A DNA stretch of 64,000 nucleotides from a virus (IMGVR_UViG_2879905790_000001:1-64000); one strand, 5' to 3'; positions 1,025 through 39,459 are shown, counted from the first letter of the stretch. The notes: generated from the sequence alone by a model not told the origin. A program made the numbers and translations.

Positions 1025-2500
1025 ATGAAATTAAATATTGACGTTGAAACTTTAAAAGGTTTATCAAACAAAGAAATAGCAAAAGCTTTAAAAAAGGAAT
1101 TAAAAGCACAAACTAGTGTAAAATTTAGTGTTACAAGTGATATATATTCAATACATTGTACTTGCAATGATGATGATTTTCAAGCTAATAAAGAGATTAT
1201 AAAAGAAGTGGCTGGAATGTTTACAAAATGTACAACTGATACAATTTATATCAATAGTAGAATAGCTTATTATTCAGACACAAAAGAATACAAAGAAAAG
1301 AAAAAGAAAGAATACGAACAACAACAAGCTGAACTCGAAAGAAAAAGACAAGAAAGAAAAAAACTATACAATGACAATGTAACAATCAAAGAATTTGATT
1401 ATAACAAGGTTAAGATTGAAAATATAGAGGATAAAAATATTTTTATTACAGCTTTAGAACCTAGCATAAATAAGAATAATTGGAAAGTAGATAACGATAA
1501 ATATATAGATGAGCGTAGTTATTTAAATAAATATAAGATTACAGATATTGTTTATATGAACGAAGAGAATTACAATTATTTTTGTTTTAATCTTTTAGAT
1601 GATTATACTTTTTTAGAAAATAAAGGTGGTACATGGACAGATGATGAAACAGAAATAGTTTTATATCATGGTGGGGTATGTGTATATTGTGAAGGCAAAG
1701 AACCTATTATAATAGACCCTCAAGGCTACTCATATGCTAGATATACAAATAGACTAGCAGAAGACTTTAACGGAGATTTACAAAGAGAATTTGATAAAGA
1801 ATTAAATATAAATAATACTTCTTATTTAGAGGTTTTAAGTAATATAAATGTAACAGATTTATATATTTATTCAAAAAATACATGGGAATATTTAGACAAG
1901 AAAATTATAAATGATGGTCGATTTATTTACGATGATTATACATCAAATGTCGTTATAACAGGTTTAACATATAAAGAATTATTAAAAGAAGGTAACGGAA
2001 CAAAATTACACCTTGAAAAGCTACATCATAATAGTAAATTATTAATGGAAAATATAATCAAATGTGAAACTGGAGCAGTACAAATCTTATTTGTAAAAAG
2101 TAAGCTAGAAACAGTGTTTAAGGGTACAAAATTTAGTGAAAGACTTGTAAAGGAATTAGAAAGGGCTTCAAGTCATAAACCTACACCAGAACCACCAAAA
2201 CCAACTAAAAAAGAAGATAAAAATAATTTAAAAGAAAAACAAAATAATAGTAATATCATTAGTGTAGATTTTACAAAGCCAAAAGAAGTTGTTTTTAATA
2301 AAGCAAATTGGAAAGAAGACCAAGCAACTAAAAAACAATTATATGCATTATATTGTATAACTAAAATAAAAACTACAAATTTAAAAATATCAAAAGGTCA
2401 AGCGAGTGAACTTATTTCAAAAAGCAAAAAAGGTAAGGATATAAAAGCAGATTTAAAGGAATTAATAAAAAATCAAAATATTAAAGAAGGAATAATATAA
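1025..2500 (+). CDS. Multidomain polyvalent-type protein, LPD29-like N-terminus
   Basis: EIAKALKKELK...VKFSVTS resembles LPD29; central DPQGYSYARY; Pro-rich linker; C-terminal ATKKQ...SKGQASELI motif. Confidence 0.55.
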   Translation: MKLNIDVETLKGLSNKEIAKALKKELKAQTSVKFSVTSDIYSIHCTCNDDDFQANKEIIKEVAGMFTKCTTDTIYINSRIAYYSDTKEYKEKKKKEYEQQQAELERKRQERKKLYNDNVTIKEFDYNKVKIENIEDKNIFITALEPSINKNNWKVDNDKYIDERSYLNKYKITDIVYMNEENYNYFCFNLLDDYTFLENKGGTWTDDETEIVLYHGGVCVYCEGKEPIIIDPQGYSYARYTNRLAEDFNGDLQREFDKELNINNTSYLEVLSNINVTDLYIYSKNTWEYLDKKIINDGRFIYDDYTSNVVITGLTYKELLKEGNGTKLHLEKLHHNSKLLMENIIKCETGAVQILFVKSKLETVFKGTKFSERLVKELERASSHKPTPEPPKPTKKEDKNNLKEKQNNSNIISVDFTKPKEVVFNKANWKEDQATKKQLYALYCITKIKTTNLKISKGQASELISKSKKGKDIKADLKELIKNQNIKEGII

Positions 2501-7102: not shown

Positions 7103-7306
7103 TTAAAATTTAAATAAAATGATATAAATGATAAGTTTTATTAAAAACAATTTAATAAAAATCTTATATAACAGAAAATTGTCTGTGGCTTCTATAGAAT
7201 ATTTAAAAGTTTCAAGTAGTAAAATATTTGGCTCGGTAGTTTATAATCTTTGCTACTAGAAAATAAAAAAGATGTTATAATTAAATATAAGGGGAGTTGG
7301 GAAAAT

Positions 7307-7654
7307 ATGTATAAAAATGAATATTTAGAAGAATGTTTAAAAAATGAAAAAGGAAATTATTATTTATTAACAGGTTATAGATATACCAAAGAATATCAAT
7401 TTAAAACATTAATAATTGATGATTTAGGTTTTATTTATGACAAGCCTGAAAAATTGAAAGAATTAAAAGAAGAACTATTAAAAGCTAATATTAAAAGCTT
7501 TGTATTAACTGCATCTGGATCAGCATTGATGAATCATTTACATGGCTTAGATTCAGTTAATATAAAAATTAAAGGGGTTAGAAAAGCTTCATATATTGAC
7601 AAATGGGATGAGGAAGAGTGTTTTAAAGAAGGATTAGAAATGATAGTTAAATAA
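7307..7654 (+). CDS. Hypothetical protein
   Basis: ATG 7307 after GGGGAG. Confidence 0.7.
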   Translation: MYKNEYLEECLKNEKGNYYLLTGYRYTKEYQFKTLIIDDLGFIYDKPEKLKELKEELLKANIKSFVLTASGSALMNHLHGLDSVNIKIKGVRKASYIDKWDEEECFKEGLEMIVK

Positions 7655-7657
7655 GTA

Positions 7658-7686
7658 TTTACAATATAATCCTAATATGATATATT
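7658..7686 (+). promoter_or_regulatory. Promoter of the CRISPR-like RNA
   Basis: TTTACA-17bp-TATATT with extended -10 TG; predicted start at about repeat 1. Confidence 0.65.
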
Positions 7687-7694
7687 ATATACAT

Positions 7695-7777
7695 ATTGAA
7701 CCGTAACCACTTAGTGGTATTTAAATATTATTACGTTTATTAATAAAATTGAACAGTAACACATGGTGTATTTAAAT
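7695..7777 (+). CRISPR. Orphan two-repeat CRISPR mini-array or crRNA mimic
   Basis: R1 7695-7726 ATTGAACCGTAACCACTTAGTGGTATTTAAAT; 21-nt spacer ATTATTACGTTTATTAATAAA; R2 7748-7777 ATTGAACAGTAACACATGGTGTATTTAAAT. Both have a short hairpin and a 3' ATTTAAAT handle, like 30-nt clostridial class 1 repeats. Confidence 0.8.
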
Positions 7778-7795
7778 TTGATTAAATTAATTACC

Positions 7796-7851
7796 ATAAA
7801 TAAGCAATCTTGAAAATCAAAGTAGAGATTGCTTATTTATTTTTGTTTTTT
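7796..7851 (+). terminator. Intrinsic terminator closing the CRISPR-like RNA
   Basis: ATAAATAAGCAATCT...AGATTGCTTATTTAT plus T-rich tail. Confidence 0.75.
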
Positions 7852-8021
7852 ACTGGAATAGTTTCATTAGGGAGCTTTGTAATAGCTTTAAATTGATTCA
7901 AGGTATAATTACACTAATAAAAATAAAATAGTCTGAATAGTCTTAGATTGAATTTTAGTATTATATCTTTATTTACAATACATTCTAATATAAAATAATT
8001 TAATATTGTGTAAAAAATATA

Positions 8022-8049
8022 TTGACTTATTATATAACAGTAGTATAAT
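8022..8049 (+). promoter_or_regulatory. sigmaA promoter (module copy 3) with TATAACAG motif in its spacer
   Basis: TTGACT-16bp-TATAAT. Confidence 0.6.
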
Positions 8050-8095
8050 AATAATTAAGGATATATGAAAATGAGTTTAAAGGAGTTGTTTTTAA

Positions 8096-8275
8096 ATGAA
8101 TAGATATACTGGTGCAAATGAATTTAAATTAGTTTATAAAATAGGTGTATGTAGTGATAAAATAATAACAGAATGTAAAGAATTTATGTGTGAATCAGAT
8201 GCAAGATTATATTTACAAATGAAAGATAGCAGAATTTTTATTATATCTATTGAAAACTTGGAATTAATAGCTTAA
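8096..8275 (+). CDS. Hypothetical protein (59 aa)
   Basis: RBS AAGGAG. Confidence 0.65.
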   Translation: MNRYTGANEFKLVYKIGVCSDKIITECKEFMCESDARLYLQMKDSRIFIISIENLELIA

Positions 8276-8434
8276 AAATAAACATATGATTAATTTAAAA
8301 TGCATATTTTATTTAAAATAATTTTTTAAAACATAGATAGCGTTGTCTATGTTTTATATTTATATAACAGAAAATTTTATATAATAATTATATCTTTAAT
8401 TCAAAATAATTTAATAAAAATCTTTATAAACCTA

Positions 8435-8462
8435 TTGCATATATTTCCCTTTATGTTATAAT
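8435..8462 (+). promoter_or_regulatory. sigmaA promoter
   Basis: TTGCAT...TGTTATAAT, flanked by AAAAYAATTTAATAA boxes. Confidence 0.55.
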
Positions 8463-8512
8463 AAGAATTGTAAACAATATAAAACAATTTAATAATATTA
8501 AACAAAGGAGTT

Positions 8513-16831: not shown

Positions 16832-18301
16832 ATGATAGAAAACAAAGATTACAATTACGATAGATTGATAAGAGAAATCACAGGCTGTCTAAGTCTAAAA
16901 CAATTTTTAATGAAAAAACCTTTTGTGATTAAAGAATTAGAGAACAAAGTAAACGAAGAAAGAATTAATAATCTCTTTAATCAAGATATACAAATTGATA
17001 TGCTTGATACTAGAGAACTTTATCTAATAACAGAAACCTTTTACAAAATGTTATTAGATGAAGAATTCATTTCTAAATTAAATGAATTCCAACAACAATT
17101 ACAAAAAGATCTAAATCCAGAACTTTATTTTACAGAAGATGAAATAAGACAATATAAGAACTCAGTATTACCTGTAGAAGAAGAACAAGATTTTAAAACA
17201 GTAGTTTTTAAAAATGTTAAGTTTATGAAAGAAGGCATCTATAGTACCGTTGATGACTTTAATTATATTTTAGACCTAAGAGAGAAAGGCATTCTGTTTT
17301 ATAACATAAATTGTCAAAGAGAAACAGAAAAATATGAATGGAGAGGAACTTATGTAGAAAAAGCTAAAGTTTTTTCTAAATCTATAAAAGAAATATCTGA
17401 AAGTATGTATCAGGATAAATATATACCTACTTATATAGCTATAAATGTTCCTTCAAATGGAGAAGAAGATTTTCATGTAATAGATAAGGAAAACGGTTTA
17501 TACGATATTATAATAAAAATAAATAAGAATACTAGTTTAAACTTAATAGATGGAAATCATAGAACAACAGGGGGAAGTTTAGCTAGAAATATGTGTCGTA
17601 GAAAAGGTAAAGAATTCCTTTTAAATATGGGAATTCAAATTATGAACTTAGACCCTAGTTCAGCTAGACAATATATTTTCCAAGAAAGCAAGAAAAATCC
17701 TCTTGATGAAACTCTAACTAAAGCTATGGAGAAGACTATAGAAAATGAAATAGCTGATTATATGAATAAAGGAGAAAGTCCATTAGCAGGAAAGTTAGGG
17801 AGAGAATTGAAAGATGTAAAAACATTAAATAAACTAACTCCTCTATATGTTTTTGCAGAAGGTTTAAAACATTTTGAGCTTGATGAACTGGATTTAATAA
17901 GAAAAAATAAAGTTAAAAGGTTTTTAAAAGATTTTTTCAATTGTATTTTAAGTTTTCATAAGGATAAAAGAAGGGATCGTGAACTTTCAATAGAAGATAT
18001 GTTGAAGAATAAAAAATTAAAAGAAAAAAAATCAGAAGAAGAAGGCTACGAATTAAATATGAATATGTTTAGAGGTTATTTATATATAGCTGCTAAATTA
18101 TTTAATGATCCTAATTGGATAGAGAAGATAGACACAATTTTGAAAAAAATAGATTATAAAAAAGGTGGTGCATTAGAAGATATGCATCTCTTTAAAAATG
18201 AAATGAGTAAAACAAATATAAAAAAACTAGAAGAGTATTTAGAAAATATATTGAGCGAAGTAGAAGAAAGTGGTGAGAACGAAAATGTCAGAAAAAATTA
18301 G
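16832..18301 (+). CDS. DndB/DGQHR-domain protein, SPbeta YopQ/SroE-like repressor
   Basis: CQRE...PTYIAIN...LIDGNHR; overlaps the integrase-like gene, same order as yopQ-yopR. Confidence 0.6.
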   Translation: MIENKDYNYDRLIREITGCLSLKQFLMKKPFVIKELENKVNEERINNLFNQDIQIDMLDTRELYLITETFYKMLLDEEFISKLNEFQQQLQKDLNPELYFTEDEIRQYKNSVLPVEEEQDFKTVVFKNVKFMKEGIYSTVDDFNYILDLREKGILFYNINCQRETEKYEWRGTYVEKAKVFSKSIKEISESMYQDKYIPTYIAINVPSNGEEDFHVIDKENGLYDIIIKINKNTSLNLIDGNHRTTGGSLARNMCRRKGKEFLLNMGIQIMNLDPSSARQYIFQESKKNPLDETLTKAMEKTIENEIADYMNKGESPLAGKLGRELKDVKTLNKLTPLYVFAEGLKHFELDELDLIRKNKVKRFLKDFFNCILSFHKDKRRDRELSIEDMLKNKKLKEKKSEEEGYELNMNMFRGYLYIAAKLFNDPNWIEKIDTILKKIDYKKGGALEDMHLFKNEMSKTNIKKLEEYLENILSEVEESGENENVRKN

Positions 18302-33750: not shown

Positions 33751-34758
33751 ATGAATATACAGGATATAAAACAAAAATTAAATAGCAAAGAATATGATTT
33801 CTTAAGAAATAACGAACATTTAGGAAATAATATAATATTATTAACTACTGGAGGAAGTCATGCATATGGTACTAATGTCGAAAGTAGTGATTTAGATATT
33901 AGAGGAATAGCTACAGAAAGAATAGAAGAATTAATAGGACTATCTTCATTTGAACAATTTGAAAATAAAGAAACAGACACTACAATATATGCATTAAATA
34001 AAGTTATAAAGTTAATGCTTAATTGTAATCCAAATACAATAGAATTATTAGGAACAAAAGATGAGCATTTATTTATTTGTAATAAGCATGGTAAATTATT
34101 AAGAGATAATGTGAATTTATTTTTATCTAAAAAAGCAATACATAGTTTTGGAGGGTATGCCACAGCCCAATTAAGAAGGCTTCAAAATGCTTTAGCTAGA
34201 GATTCCTATCCCCAATCTGAAAAAGAACAGCACATATTAAATAGTATAAAGAATCAAATGGTATCTTTTGAAGATAGATATAAAAAAATTACAAACAAAA
34301 ATATTAATTTGTATATAGATAAATCTAAAAAAGAAGATTTAGAAAATGAAATATTTATGAATATTGATTTAAACAATTATCCTTTAAGAGACTTTAAAAA
34401 CATATATTCAGAAATGAGCAATATAGTTAAAGATTATGGAAAGTTAAATCATAGAAATAGCAAAAAAGATGAGCTGCACTTAAATAAACATGCATTACAC
34501 TTGATTAGGTTGTTAAAAATGGGAACGGAATTATTAGAAGGTAAAGGGATAAATACTTATAGAGACAAAGACAGAGAGCTATTATTAAACATAAGAAATG
34601 GTAAGTATAGTTACAAAGAAATATTTGAAATGGTAGATAAATATGAGAAAGATTTTAAATATGCCTCTGACAATACAAATTTACCTAATAAACCCAAGTA
34701 TAAAGAAGTAGAAGAATTAGTTATAGAAATTAACAAAGGAGTAATCAACAATGATTAG
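33751..34758 (+). CDS. Pol-beta-family nucleotidyltransferase, RlaP-like
   Basis: GGSHAYGTNVESSDLDIRG, NPNTIELL, KHALHLIRL. Confidence 0.8.
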   Translation: MNIQDIKQKLNSKEYDFLRNNEHLGNNIILLTTGGSHAYGTNVESSDLDIRGIATERIEELIGLSSFEQFENKETDTTIYALNKVIKLMLNCNPNTIELLGTKDEHLFICNKHGKLLRDNVNLFLSKKAIHSFGGYATAQLRRLQNALARDSYPQSEKEQHILNSIKNQMVSFEDRYKKITNKNINLYIDKSKKEDLENEIFMNIDLNNYPLRDFKNIYSEMSNIVKDYGKLNHRNSKKDELHLNKHALHLIRLLKMGTELLEGKGINTYRDKDRELLLNIRNGKYSYKEIFEMVDKYEKDFKYASDNTNLPNKPKYKEVEELVIEINKGVINND

Positions 34759-36103
34759 TAAAGATATAAAAATTCAAATGCCTAAATGGGTAAGGTATAT
34801 TATAAATACTTTAGAAGATTTTGATTATGAGGCATATATAGTAGGAGGCTGTGTTAGAGATAGTTTATTAAATAGAAACCCAAATGACTGGGATATTACC
34901 ACTAATGCAAAACCACAAGATGTAATTGAAATATTTGAAAGCTTAGGATATAAAATTATACCTACAGGATTAAAGCACGGAACAGTTACAATATTAATAA
35001 ATGATATGCCAATAGAAGTAACGACTTATAGAATAGATGGAGCATATGATGATAATAGACATCCTAAAGAAGTTACATTTACTAATAGCTTAAAAGAGGA
35101 CTTAAGTCGCAGAGATTTCACTATCAATGCAATAGCTTATAATGATAAAGAAGGATTAGTTGATTATTTTGGAGGATTGAGAGATTTAGAATATAAGGAA
35201 TTAAATTGTGTAGGTAATGCTGAAGAAAGATTTAAAGAAGATAAATTGAGAATTCTTAGAGCAATAAGATTTGCAAGTGCATACGATTTAGAAATTTACC
35301 GAAATATAATTTATGCTATAGAAGAAGATAATGACCTATCTAAATTAAGCAAGGAAAGAGTAAAAAGTGAATTTAATAAAATAATGTTAAGTAAAAAACC
35401 TAGTATATGGTTAAATTTAATGTTGAGATTAGGTTTACTTGAACAAATAGTACCTGAAATTAGAAAATGTTTTGCTTTCGACCAATTAAACCCACATCAT
35501 AATAAAAATGTATTTGACCATATTTTAGATGTAGTAGACAATACTGACCCAATATTAGAATTAAGATTGTCGGCATTATTTCATGACATTGGAAAACCAA
35601 AATGTTTTAGTTTGGGTGAAGATGGAGTGGGTCATTTTTATTCACATCAAAAAGAATCAGCTAAAATTTGCGAAAACAGAATGAGAAAATTAAAATATAG
35701 TAATAAAGAGATTGAAAATGTTAGAGAATTAGTATATTGGCACATGAATATTTGCGATAATACTTCATTAAAGTCTATAAAAAAATTTATTAAAAATATA
35801 AGTGTTGATAGATTGGAATATTTATTTAAATTAAAAGTAGCTGATATAAGTGCTAGTGTTTATTGTTATGAGGATTATGCAGATATATTTAAAACTAAAT
35901 ATGAATGTGAAAGAGTATTAAATGAAAAACAACCTTTAACAATTAAGGATTTAGATATTAATGGATATGACTTAATGAAGTTAGGAATAAACCAAGGAAA
36001 AGAAATAGGTATTATGTTAAATAAATTATTAGATGTAATTTTAGAAAATCCTAATTTAAATAATAAAGAAGACTTAATTAAAATAGTTAAAGATAACTTA
36101 TAA
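34751..36103 (+). CDS. cca: CCA-adding tRNA nucleotidyltransferase family protein with HD domain
   Basis: VGGCVRD, DWD, EVTTYR, RRDFTINA, EDKLRILRAIRF, HH...LFHDIGKP. Confidence 0.9.
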   Translation: MISKDIKIQMPKWVRYIINTLEDFDYEAYIVGGCVRDSLLNRNPNDWDITTNAKPQDVIEIFESLGYKIIPTGLKHGTVTILINDMPIEVTTYRIDGAYDDNRHPKEVTFTNSLKEDLSRRDFTINAIAYNDKEGLVDYFGGLRDLEYKELNCVGNAEERFKEDKLRILRAIRFASAYDLEIYRNIIYAIEEDNDLSKLSKERVKSEFNKIMLSKKPSIWLNLMLRLGLLEQIVPEIRKCFAFDQLNPHHNKNVFDHILDVVDNTDPILELRLSALFHDIGKPKCFSLGEDGVGHFYSHQKESAKICENRMRKLKYSNKEIENVRELVYWHMNICDNTSLKSIKKFIKNISVDRLEYLFKLKVADISASVYCYEDYADIFKTKYECERVLNEKQPLTIKDLDINGYDLMKLGINQGKEIGIMLNKLLDVILENPNLNNKEDLIKIVKDNL

Positions 36104-38235: not shown

Positions 38236-39459
38236 ATGCAAATAATACAAGGAAGATATTCAAAAGCTAATATATATACAAATAATATTGAAGAAAGTGC
38301 TAAAGAGCAAATTTTAGAATTATGTAATCAAGATTTCACAAAAGATAGTAAGATAAGAATAATGCCTGATTGCCATAGTGGGAAAGGCTGTGTGATAGGG
38401 TTTACAGCAGATTTGGGGAATAAAGTAATTCCAAATATTGTTGGTGTTGATATTGGATGTGGAATGCTAACAGTAGAATTAGAAAACATAAATATAAATT
38501 TAAAAGAACTAGATGATATTATTTATAAGTATATTCCTTCAGGGATGGAAGTACATCAAGAAAGAAAAATAAAGTTTTCAAAATTACAAAACTTATATTG
38601 TTATAGAAATCTAAAAGATACAAGAAGGTTAGAAAAAAGTATTGGTACACTTGGAGGAGGAAATCACTTTATTGAAGTAAATAAAGATAAAAATAATAAT
38701 TCATATTTAGTAATTCATTCTGGAAGTAGAAATTTAGGCAAACAAGTAGCAGAATATTATCAAAATATAGCAATAGATATGTGTAGCGGTAAAGAAGATT
38801 ATTATAAAGAAAAAGATAGAATAATAAAAGAATATAAAATCAATGGGAAAAAGCATTTGATTCAAGATGAATTAAAAAAATTAAAAGATAAATATACTAC
38901 TTCAACAGCTCAATATAAAAAAGAATTGTGTTATTTAAAAGGAGAGTTTAGAGATAAGTATCTACACGACATGAAAATATGTCAAGAATATGCTTCTTTA
39001 AATAGAAAAACTATGGCTGATATTATTTTAAATAAATTATTTAACCAAAGATTAAACAACTTTAATCACTTTGAAACAGTTCATAATTATATTAATTTTA
39101 AAGACAATATAATTCGTAAAGGTAGTATCTCAGCTTATAAGAACGAGAAAATATTAATACCTATTAATATGAGAGATGGTAGTATTTTAGCTGTAGGAAA
39201 AGGGAATAAAGAATGGAACTATTCAGCACCTCATGGAGCAGGAAGGTTAATGAGTAGAAATAAGGCTAAAGAATTAGTGTCAATGGAAGAATATAAAAAA
39301 TCAATGGAAGGGATATATTCAACGTCAGTTAATCAAGACACAATAGATGAATCTCCTATGGTTTATAAAAACATAGAGGAAATTATAGAAAATATAAAAG
39401 AAACTGTTGATATTATAGATATTATTAAACCAATATATAATTTTAAAGCTTCAAAATAA
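38236..39459 (+). CDS. rtcB: RtcB RNA ligase
   Basis: MPDCH, VGVDIGCG, GTLGGGNHFIE, IHSGSR, HNY, RKG, SAPHGAGR. Confidence 0.93.
   Translation: MQIIQGRYSKANIYTNNIEESAKEQILELCNQDFTKDSKIRIMPDCHSGKGCVIGFTADLGNKVIPNIVGVDIGCGMLTVELENININLKELDDIIYKYIPSGMEVHQERKIKFSKLQNLYCYRNLKDTRRLEKSIGTLGGGNHFIEVNKDKNNNSYLVIHSGSRNLGKQVAEYYQNIAIDMCSGKEDYYKEKDRIIKEYKINGKKHLIQDELKKLKDKYTTSTAQYKKELCYLKGEFRDKYLHDMKICQEYASLNRKTMADIILNKLFNQRLNNFNHFETVHNYINFKDNIIRKGSISAYKNEKILIPINMRDGSILAVGKGNKEWNYSAPHGAGRLMSRNKAKELVSMEEYKKSMEGIYSTSVNQDTIDESPMVYKNIEEIIENIKETVDIIDIIKPIYNFKASK

Follow-up and report, generated by a model that had tools for sequence, protein, structure and literature searches.

RNA anti-CRISPRs of the Cracr kind copy the host regulators CreR/CreA, compete for Cas proteins and redirect Cas complexes to repress cas or toxin promoters. 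In the preprint that describes them (Liu et al., bioRxiv 10.1101/2024.10.29.618823), 219 candidates are reported, some of them aimed at type I-B systems, and the spacers of the viral type I-F candidates surveyed are typically 17-21 nt long, which excludes some backbone subunits. Shmakov et al. (2023; PMC10120712) described type I-B mini-arrays upstream of cas6 in C. perfringens, with shortened copies in the Clostridium phages c-st and phiSM101/phiCp-D, and a figure legend of that work pairs prophage mini-arrays with CRISPR-Cas loci that have no mini-array of their own. As far as these two sources go, RNA anti-CRISPRs that reprogram host Cas proteins are experimental cases for types V-A, I-E and I-F, while type I-B and Clostridium are represented by predictions only. 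Other phage RNAs, the Racrs (e.g., RacrIF1), are solitary repeats acting as decoys, described in a main text that mentions neither type I-B nor Clostridium (Camara-Wilpert et al. 2023; PMC10651486). Here we describe a unit at positions 7658-7851 (plus strand) of IMGVR_UViG_2879905790_000001:1-64000, hereafter the window, which comprises the first 64 kb of a 196,981-bp virus record (G000; 99% complete) of a large Clostridium phage. The unit is located on a virus, outside any CRISPR-cas locus, and is a further, putative example of this recently described kind of RNA anti-CRISPR, with no new principle.

We propose that the unit is, on balance, probably a viral CRISPR RNA (crRNA)-like Cas-repressing RNA (Cracr, or CreR mimic) that guides Cascade to the region upstream of cas6 and also competes for Cas proteins. 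It would be transcribed from its own promoter, with a start predicted at about 7693-7695, at the first base of repeat 1, and would end at the terminator. As in the making of type I-B crRNAs, the host Cas6 would cut at the base of each hairpin, 8 nt before the repeat end, and release a product of about 51 nt (7719-7769), composed of the handle ATTTAAAT, the 21-nt guide and the hairpin of repeat 2, to which Cas6 would bind. By analogy with the complexes of short-spacer Cracrs, Cas5, Cas8b, Cas6 and only three or four Cas7 subunits may assemble on this short RNA, and the undersized Cascade would bind DNA but would not be expected to license Cas3. The guide would then take the complex to the strand antisense to cas6, 88-109 nt upstream of its ATG, where it may lower the expression of the cas operon, and the RNA may also divert Cas proteins from the many crRNAs that target the phage.

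The locus resembles the Cracrs in its place on a mobile element outside a cas locus, in the succession of a repeat-like segment, a short spacer and a second repeat-like segment behind a promoter-like site of its own, in its 21-nt spacer, which falls within the reported range of 17-21 nt, and in a candidate target located in a cas upstream region. On the other hand, the published candidates were defined by their similarity to the spacer of a host CreR/CreA, and no host spacer with at least 9 PAM-proximal nt (PAM, protospacer adjacent motif) in common with the guide of this unit was found in the genomes, cas6 upstream regions and metagenome contigs searched; besides, its target match has two mismatches in the seed and an AAT flank. 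With the mini-arrays of Shmakov et al. the unit shares Clostridium type I-B-like repeats, a target near cas6, a shortened phage spacer and a host locus without a mini-array of its own; it differs in that the C. perfringens host mini-array reported there lies upstream of cas6, whereas none was found at that place in the host clade of this unit. A blastn search with the unit matched no phages of the c-st or phiSM101/phiCp-D type, and Clostridium phage CWou-2020a was the only Clostridium phage found. Likewise, the unit recalls the Racrs as a repeat mimic encoded by a phage, with a promoter-like site of its own and without cas genes, to which Cas6 would be expected to bind, but a Racr as described is a solitary repeat without a guide, and this unit has two repeats placed 21 nt apart around a conserved spacer.

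All the elements that the original prediction had named from the sequence, i.e., a promoter, two related repeats of 32 and 30 nt, a 21-nt spacer, a segment of about 18-20 nt and a terminator, are present (Table 1). Searches of the whole 197-kb genome with the Cas6 (TIGR01877), Cas7/DevR (PF01905), Cas5 (PF09704) and Cas1 (TIGR00287) families returned no match, in agreement with a self-contained unit without cas genes. This absence, together with the two non-identical repeats, the 21-nt spacer and the lack of a host-type leader, sets the unit apart from a canonical CRISPR array. At their 5' ends the two repeats agree in 12 of 13 nt, and at their 3' ends in the final 9 nt, TATTTAAAT; their hairpins differ. 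For the pattern TTGAACN{12,22}TATTTAAAT the window has two occurrences where 0.04 are expected, and none of 100 shuffles had two or more; it is not found elsewhere in the 196,981-bp genome, and a looser scan for a hairpin plus handle also returned just these two places. The promoter-like site scores 10/12 with TG, as a consensus match only, and the scan of the region gave 21 such sites against 18.1 expected in this AT-rich DNA, so that the match alone proves nothing. The terminator does not appear in the output of the terminator scan because its loop has 15 nt. In the predicted fold of 7693-7852 (z-score -2.53), the hairpin of repeat 1 and the terminator are present in both the minimum free energy (MFE) and the centroid structures, and the 4-bp hairpin of repeat 2 is not, being absent from the MFE structure.

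Table 1. Coordinates, in the window, of the elements of the unit and of other features of the phage.
Feature	Position	Strand	Description
Promoter-like site	7658-7686	+	-35 TTTACA at 7658-7663, 17-nt spacer, extended -10 TGaTATATT (-10 at 7681-7686)
Psi-repeat 1, 32 nt	7695-7726	+	near-consensus 5' half ATTGAACCGTAAC; 5-bp hairpin (stem ACCAC 7706-7710, loop TTA, stem GTGGT 7714-7718); 8-nt end ATTTAAAT 7719-7726
Psi-spacer (proposed guide), 21 nt	7727-7747	+	
Psi-repeat 2, 30 nt	7748-7777	+	ATTGAACAGTAAC; 4-bp hairpin (stem ACAC 7759-7762, loop ATG, stem GTGT 7766-7769); ATTTAAAT 7770-7777
AT-rich tail (possible second guide), 18 nt	7778-7795	+	between repeat 2 and terminator
Intrinsic terminator	7796-7851	+	15-16-bp stem, 13-15-nt loop, T-rich run to 7851; arms 7796-7810 and 7826-7840 form a 15-nt perfect inverted repeat (100% complementary)
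tRNA nucleotidyltransferase	34751-36100		phage-encoded
RtcB-type ligase	38236-39456		phage-encoded
DNA polymerase, 1360 aa	56089-60168		phage-encoded
Example protospacers of host spacers	17362-17397, 1899-1932		others beyond the window, at 118-195 kb

The repeats appear to belong to the clostridial GTTGAAC...ATGTATTTAAAT class, as had been predicted, and to the type I-B family. The Rfam model CRISPR-DR3 (RF01316) aligns with its positions 1-30 of 30 to both of them, with 37.3 bits (E 0.0024) for repeat 2 and 27.0 bits (E 0.18) for repeat 1; the gathering score is 41, and the Rfam search of the unit gave nothing at that level. In a survey of 43 viral stretches (about half of them true repeat loci) and 33 genome stretches, arrays with the repeat GTTGAAC[ACT][GT]TAACAT[AG][AG]GATGTATTTAAAT and a period of 65-67 nt were found in records of Clostridium botulinum, C. 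sporogenes, C. argentinense, C. lundense and others, and also in many prophage-labelled records. Compared with the commonest host repeat, repeat 2 has 4 changes in 30 positions, two of which form a compensatory pair. The stems of the host arrays are ACAT/ATGT, ACAA/TTGT and, rarely, ACAG/CTGT, and the phage stems occurred in none of the arrays seen. Both repeats of the unit keep a short hairpin directly before the 8-nt 3' end ATTTAAAT, and compensatory changes accompany this arrangement in an alignment of 28 repeats: both partners vary in three of the four stem pairs, the observed covariation score of 0.471 exceeds the 0.094 of the shuffles (0/500 attained it), and 111 of the 112 cells of the 4-bp stem are paired, a count that is partly circular because the rows were picked with a perfect-stem filter.

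The spacers of the host arrays measure 35-37 nt and that of the unit 21 nt. The original prediction had called this length abnormal, but for viral Cracrs it is a reported one (bioRxiv 10.1101/2024.10.29.618823). The suggestion that the two repeats serve two Cas6 specificities was rejected, with no observation in its support; ACAC/GTGT hairpins are found in regulatory mini-arrays and mobile elements, never in arrays. In outline, the earlier interpretation was right: the self-contained unit and the clostridial repeat type are supported, and the two Cas6 types are not. Repeats of this kind were also seen in other settings. A record titled Bacillus cereus (L172, 6110-6260), outside Clostridium, carries a solitary repeat with ACAA-ATA-TTGT plus ATTTAAAT, followed by a terminator-like hairpin. 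A 7-kb viral contig (L140, 3370-3600) has at least four non-identical repeats with spacers of about 28-40 nt and stems that are all different (ACAA/TTGT, ACGC/GCGT, ACAG/CTGT, and ACAC/GTGT), which looks like a multiplexed crRNA-like array.

The comparison of 424 distinct spacers from the fetched arrays with the phage genome, at a threshold of five mismatches, points to the host. In the record titled Clostridium botulinum ATCC 25763 (G001), 14 of 59 spacers match the phage, two of them perfectly (36/36 and 35/35) and four with one mismatch. A C. sporogenes record has a spacer matching at 35/36, and two prophage-labelled records have spacers matching at 35/36 and 31/36. The type I-B system of the G001 lineage therefore targets this phage or a very closely related one and, judged from these spacers, the host lineage is of the C. 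botulinum group I / C. sporogenes type. The flank 5'-TCA is present at 10 of the 14 protospacers of the G001 spacers and was taken as the PAM of the lineage.

One close relative of the unit was found in the viral collection, a 24-kb contig (L126) with a 400-nt alignment and 89% mean column identity. Repeat 1 is identical in both (32/32), the spacer is identical at 20/21 and repeat 2 at 28/30 positions, the latter with one change in the loop and the end ATTAAAAT. Thus, 3 of 83 positions differ over the repeats and spacer, against 9 of 22 columns in the tail (counted to 7799) and about 11% overall, so that the second segment of about 18 nt, listed in the original prediction as part of the gene, is not conserved in this relative. 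Both arms of the terminator have changes that leave the stem intact, and the promoter-like site is largely kept. The large contigs behind L153, L128, L144, and L293 were considered as further relatives at the DNA level and rejected, and a blastn search of 7250-8300 against the phage collection had no match. Among more distant relatives, represented by short contigs from three soil DNA runs, the upstream gene is kept, and in two contigs (X2 record 6 and X3 record 10) the sequence becomes unrelated immediately after 7654; of the remainder of the unit, the contigs of these runs cover only a 39-nt piece over repeat 2. This suggests that the unit is an accessory cassette, although the evidence is weak because the contigs are short.

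Modules of the same build occur in other mobile elements. The form ACAC-NNN-GTGT followed by ATT[TA]AAAT is present in 5 of 401 Clostridiaceae genomes, each of which has one copy, outside any array. One of the five, in G235, belongs to a regulatory mini-array of the host located about 150 nt upstream of cas6, another is a chance match in a coding sequence, and the remaining three are modules with spacers of 21 nt (G279), 23 nt (G220) and 28 nt (G006/L205), which share with the unit the layout of promoter, hairpin plus handle, short spacer, second repeat and terminator. In addition, the module of a prophage record (L248) contains three repeats, and its two spacers are mutual variants. A near-identical copy of repeat 2 closes the modules in L205 and L248. 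The alignment of six modules shows a conserved scaffold (hairpin, ATTTAAAT, spacer of 21-28 nt, repeat 2, and terminator) on which the spacers are swapped. The 8-nt end of the last repeat is changed to ATTAAAAT in four of seven two-repeat modules (L126, G006/L205, L248, and G220), and the 8-nt end directly upstream of the short spacer is ATTTAAAT or ATTTAAAG in the seven, with ATTAAAAT in L138. A single handle-guide-hairpin product is favoured by the architecture of the unit, by a spacer that is kept while the tail is not, by the swapping of spacers on a common scaffold and by the frequent decay of the 8-nt end of the last repeat in the relatives. An initial scan of viral sequences used too permissive a pattern and yielded nothing beyond chance matches, and the hairpin pattern of repeat 1 had no match in metagenome contigs.

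These comparisons also bear on an explanation that needs no guide, in which the unit is a Racr-like decoy whose repeats sequester Cas6 and seed unproductive Cas7/Cas5 assemblies, with the 21 nt as a linker only. We consider this unlikely, but it retains an appreciable weight. Racrs are documented (PMC10651486), the stems of the unit (ACCAC/GTGGT and ACAC/GTGT) are GC-richer or longer than the ACAT/ATGT of the host arrays, and the ACAC/GTGT form has the solitary distribution described above. In addition, the 5' half of repeat 1 is near-consensus though a crRNA-like product does not need it, and no target flanked by TCA was found. A linker, however, would hardly be kept at 20/21 in L126 next to a tail that is not, nor does it fit sister modules that swap the spacer on a kept scaffold, with one module carrying two variants of one spacer. 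The handle kept upstream of the spacer, next to a last 8-nt end that is changed in four of seven modules, fits one handle-guide-hairpin product, and the 19/21 match upstream of the host cas6, presented below, would have to be a coincidence.

It is improbable that the unit has no role in CRISPR-Cas, either as what is left of a captured array in decay or as a small RNA of an unrelated kind. The Rfam scores below gathering and the absence of the repeat-2 hairpin from the MFE fold are compatible with decay, and the distant relatives whose contigs go on with other sequence right after 7654 indicate that the cassette is dispensable. A remnant would not be expected, on the other hand, to have its own promoter-like site and terminator, to differ from L126 at 3 of 83 positions within surroundings that differ by about 11%, or to have a scaffold that recurs in unrelated mobile elements.

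The interpretation as a Cracr-type RNA is also favoured by CreR mimicry in the same repeat family. Upstream of the second-type cas6 of Clostridiaceae (L348-L407 and L344), about 20 of 61 regions have a stand-alone CreR-like unit with a short spacer, located 96-304 nt upstream of the gene, and for G121, G096, G071, and G259 a target could be recognised, flanked by CCA, TCA or TTA. The seed-weighted scoring applied to the phage guide recovered the host CreR-to-target pairs of G121 (flank CCA), G096 (TCA), and G071 (L404; TTA), the last with a target that overlaps the -35 of the cas6 promoter. The plasmid-like Clostridium phage CWou-2020a (CP063964; L257, 2500-2620) has a solitary repeat followed by 21 nt identical to the CreR-like spacer of G071, and the two are, from their sequences, a clear type I-B pair of the Cracr kind. 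The recovery of these pairs and of the viral copy shows that the approach works and that the repeat family includes viral copies of cas regulators. The host CreR/CreA units (G071, G096, G121, G235, and others) resemble the phage unit in a hairpin plus ATTTAAAT-like handle, a degenerate second repeat and a target adjoining cas6, and their spacers measure 21-37 nt. They differ in being chromosomal, in repressing their own operon and in their place upstream of a second-type cas6, whose product is about 35% identical to the Cas6 of the host lineage, whereas the phage unit is viral and would act in trans.

In the 3.9-Mb genome of G001, the guide has one match with up to two mismatches, and this single match (19/21) is the site upstream of cas6 named above, between the terminator that follows a degenerate upstream repeat and the start codon. 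None of 5000 shuffles of the guide reached 19/21 at this site (28 windows). The match has 7 contiguous PAM-proximal nt, followed by mismatches at guide positions 8 and 9. Guides of the sister modules match the homologous position and strand in two sister species. In G009, 12 of the first 13 nt of psi-spacer 1 of L248 are found there, the sole score of at least 12 among 8064 positions, and 41 of 5000 shuffles of these 13 nt reach it; in G011, the 21-nt guide of G279 matches with a seed of 9/10 and 15/21 overall, a value reached by 80 of 5000 shuffles. For the guide of G006 at the site, the count was 206/5000. Three guides coinciding at one site upstream of cas6 thus add to the case for a crRNA-like RNA. 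The region of the site is very variable among G001, G011, G009, and G004, and the extended -10 and the 5' untranslated region of cas6 are conserved.

Several observations weigh against this site as the target. Both mismatches in G001 fall inside the usual seed and at the only C and the only G of the guide, so that the matching part is a pure A/T string in AT-rich DNA. The flank is AAT in G001 and G011 and TTA in G009, against TCA at most real protospacers. The site was found post hoc, from where the best match in the genome lay, and its p-value is post hoc for that reason; the guides carried by the other modules are mutually related and, as a consequence, the tests of several guides are not independent. 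At the homologous place of G004, a relative of the host locus, the match is 14/21. Relative to the conserved extended -10 of cas6, the site is located upstream, and only a weak promoter-like TTAATA-16-TAAAAT (9/12) overlaps it; the promoter scan there gave 5 promoter-like sites against 3.7 expected. The part of the original prediction in which a non-cleaving Cascade is guided to the cas operon is therefore supported in part, by a candidate target upstream of cas6 in the host lineage, and weakened by its flank and seed mismatches.

Wider searches point in the same direction as these objections. With up to two mismatches in nine genomes of the host genus, the guide had 5 matches and the reversed guide 6; with up to three mismatches in five genomes, the guide was at the level of the reversed control; and with a TCA flank required in the host genus there were 3 matches against 4 for the control, none near cas6. 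By the seed-weighted score, guide and tail were never above shuffles in 31 and then 92 cas6 upstream regions (13-18 guides), nor was the guide above shuffles in the cas locus of G004 (17.5 kb) or in the DNA next to CRISPR loci of the host clade (314 kb). A host CreR with the seed of the guide was not found in the 401 Clostridiaceae genomes (which cover species representatives only), in the 92 cas6 upstream regions or in the metagenome collection. A search for sequencing runs containing the stretch listed three soil DNA runs with a small share of it and no RNA run.

Other candidates were tried in these searches. The handle plus seed was at control level in the 401 genomes, where the eight places inspected were all non-CRISPR, and had seven matches in metagenome contigs, none in a repeat context; the seed shared by the guides of L205 and G279 was also at control level in the host genus. 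Within the phage genome, no self-target of the guide was above shuffles, and the same holds for the tail, both there and in the cas6 upstream regions.

A more specific version of the Cracr reading is tentative and rather unlikely. The phage guide may not be copied from a host regulator, and may belong instead to a family of guides that are carried by mobile elements and track, in the C. botulinum group I / C. sporogenes clade, a 21-nt site of high variability upstream of cas6; the two seed changes and the non-TCA flank would then be host escape mutations in an arms race, and the strengthened, non-identical hairpins could trap two Cas6 per transcript.

A guide aimed at another host promoter, such as that of a Cas-repressed toxin or of a non-CRISPR defence, instead of the cas operon, is quite improbable. 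Repression of toxins and of other immune systems by crRNA-like RNAs of hosts has been described (10.1101/2024.01.05.574328, 10.1101/2024.12.27.630466), and the architecture would be the same as under the proposal made here. Against it, no other place stands out in the host-genus genomes, where matches are at control level, and a 21-nt A/T-rich guide cannot be given a target by matching alone. Least probable is superinfection exclusion by a mini-CRISPR that would turn the host Cas proteins on competing phages or plasmids: such mini-arrays carried by viruses are mentioned in the literature (PMC10120712) and the guide matches at 20/21 in an open reading frame (ORF) of 4245 aa in five related phage contigs (L293, L294, L298, L299, and L303), but the flank of that match is GGA, the reversed guide had 33 matching stretches with 7 perfect ones (21/21) against 16 non-self stretches with none perfect for the guide, and a spacer about 15 nt shorter than those of the system would make interference doubtful. 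The 4245-aa ORF is located at 676-13413 of L293, in a group of phage contigs of 70-96 kb, and the match in it is a chance one.

The locus unites a 197-kb phage, a host lineage with 14 spacers against it, a PAM derived empirically (5'-TCA) and a candidate target site also matched by guides of sister elements. With phage, host, PAM and candidate target in hand, the type I-B case is directly testable. In C. novyi sensu lato, the persistence of clostridial mobile elements despite perfectly matching host spacers is presented as a puzzle (PMC8473940); RNAs of this kind are a possible explanation, and the pair formed by CWou-2020a and G071 may bear on it. The case also shows that a pattern search is able to detect modules composed of a repeat plus a short spacer, and that spacer matches can link them to hosts.

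The phage genome has a GC content of 25.1% and encodes, besides the genes in Table 1, a RecJ-like exonuclease and a helicase among its replication and RNA genes; the tRNA nucleotidyltransferase is a CCA-adding enzyme. Ten small ORFs around the unit had no Pfam family above the cut-off, two of them, coding for proteins of 134 and 148 aa, had no relatives among solved structures, and the 134-aa protein, encoded upstream of the unit, retrieved no related viral locus when used as a query. Downstream of the unit, at 7863-8500 of the window, there are intergenic stretches rich in promoter-like sites, e.g., TTGACT-16-TATAAT at 8022-8049 (11/12), and pieces of these stretches recur several times in the related contig of L126, as for repeated early promoters.

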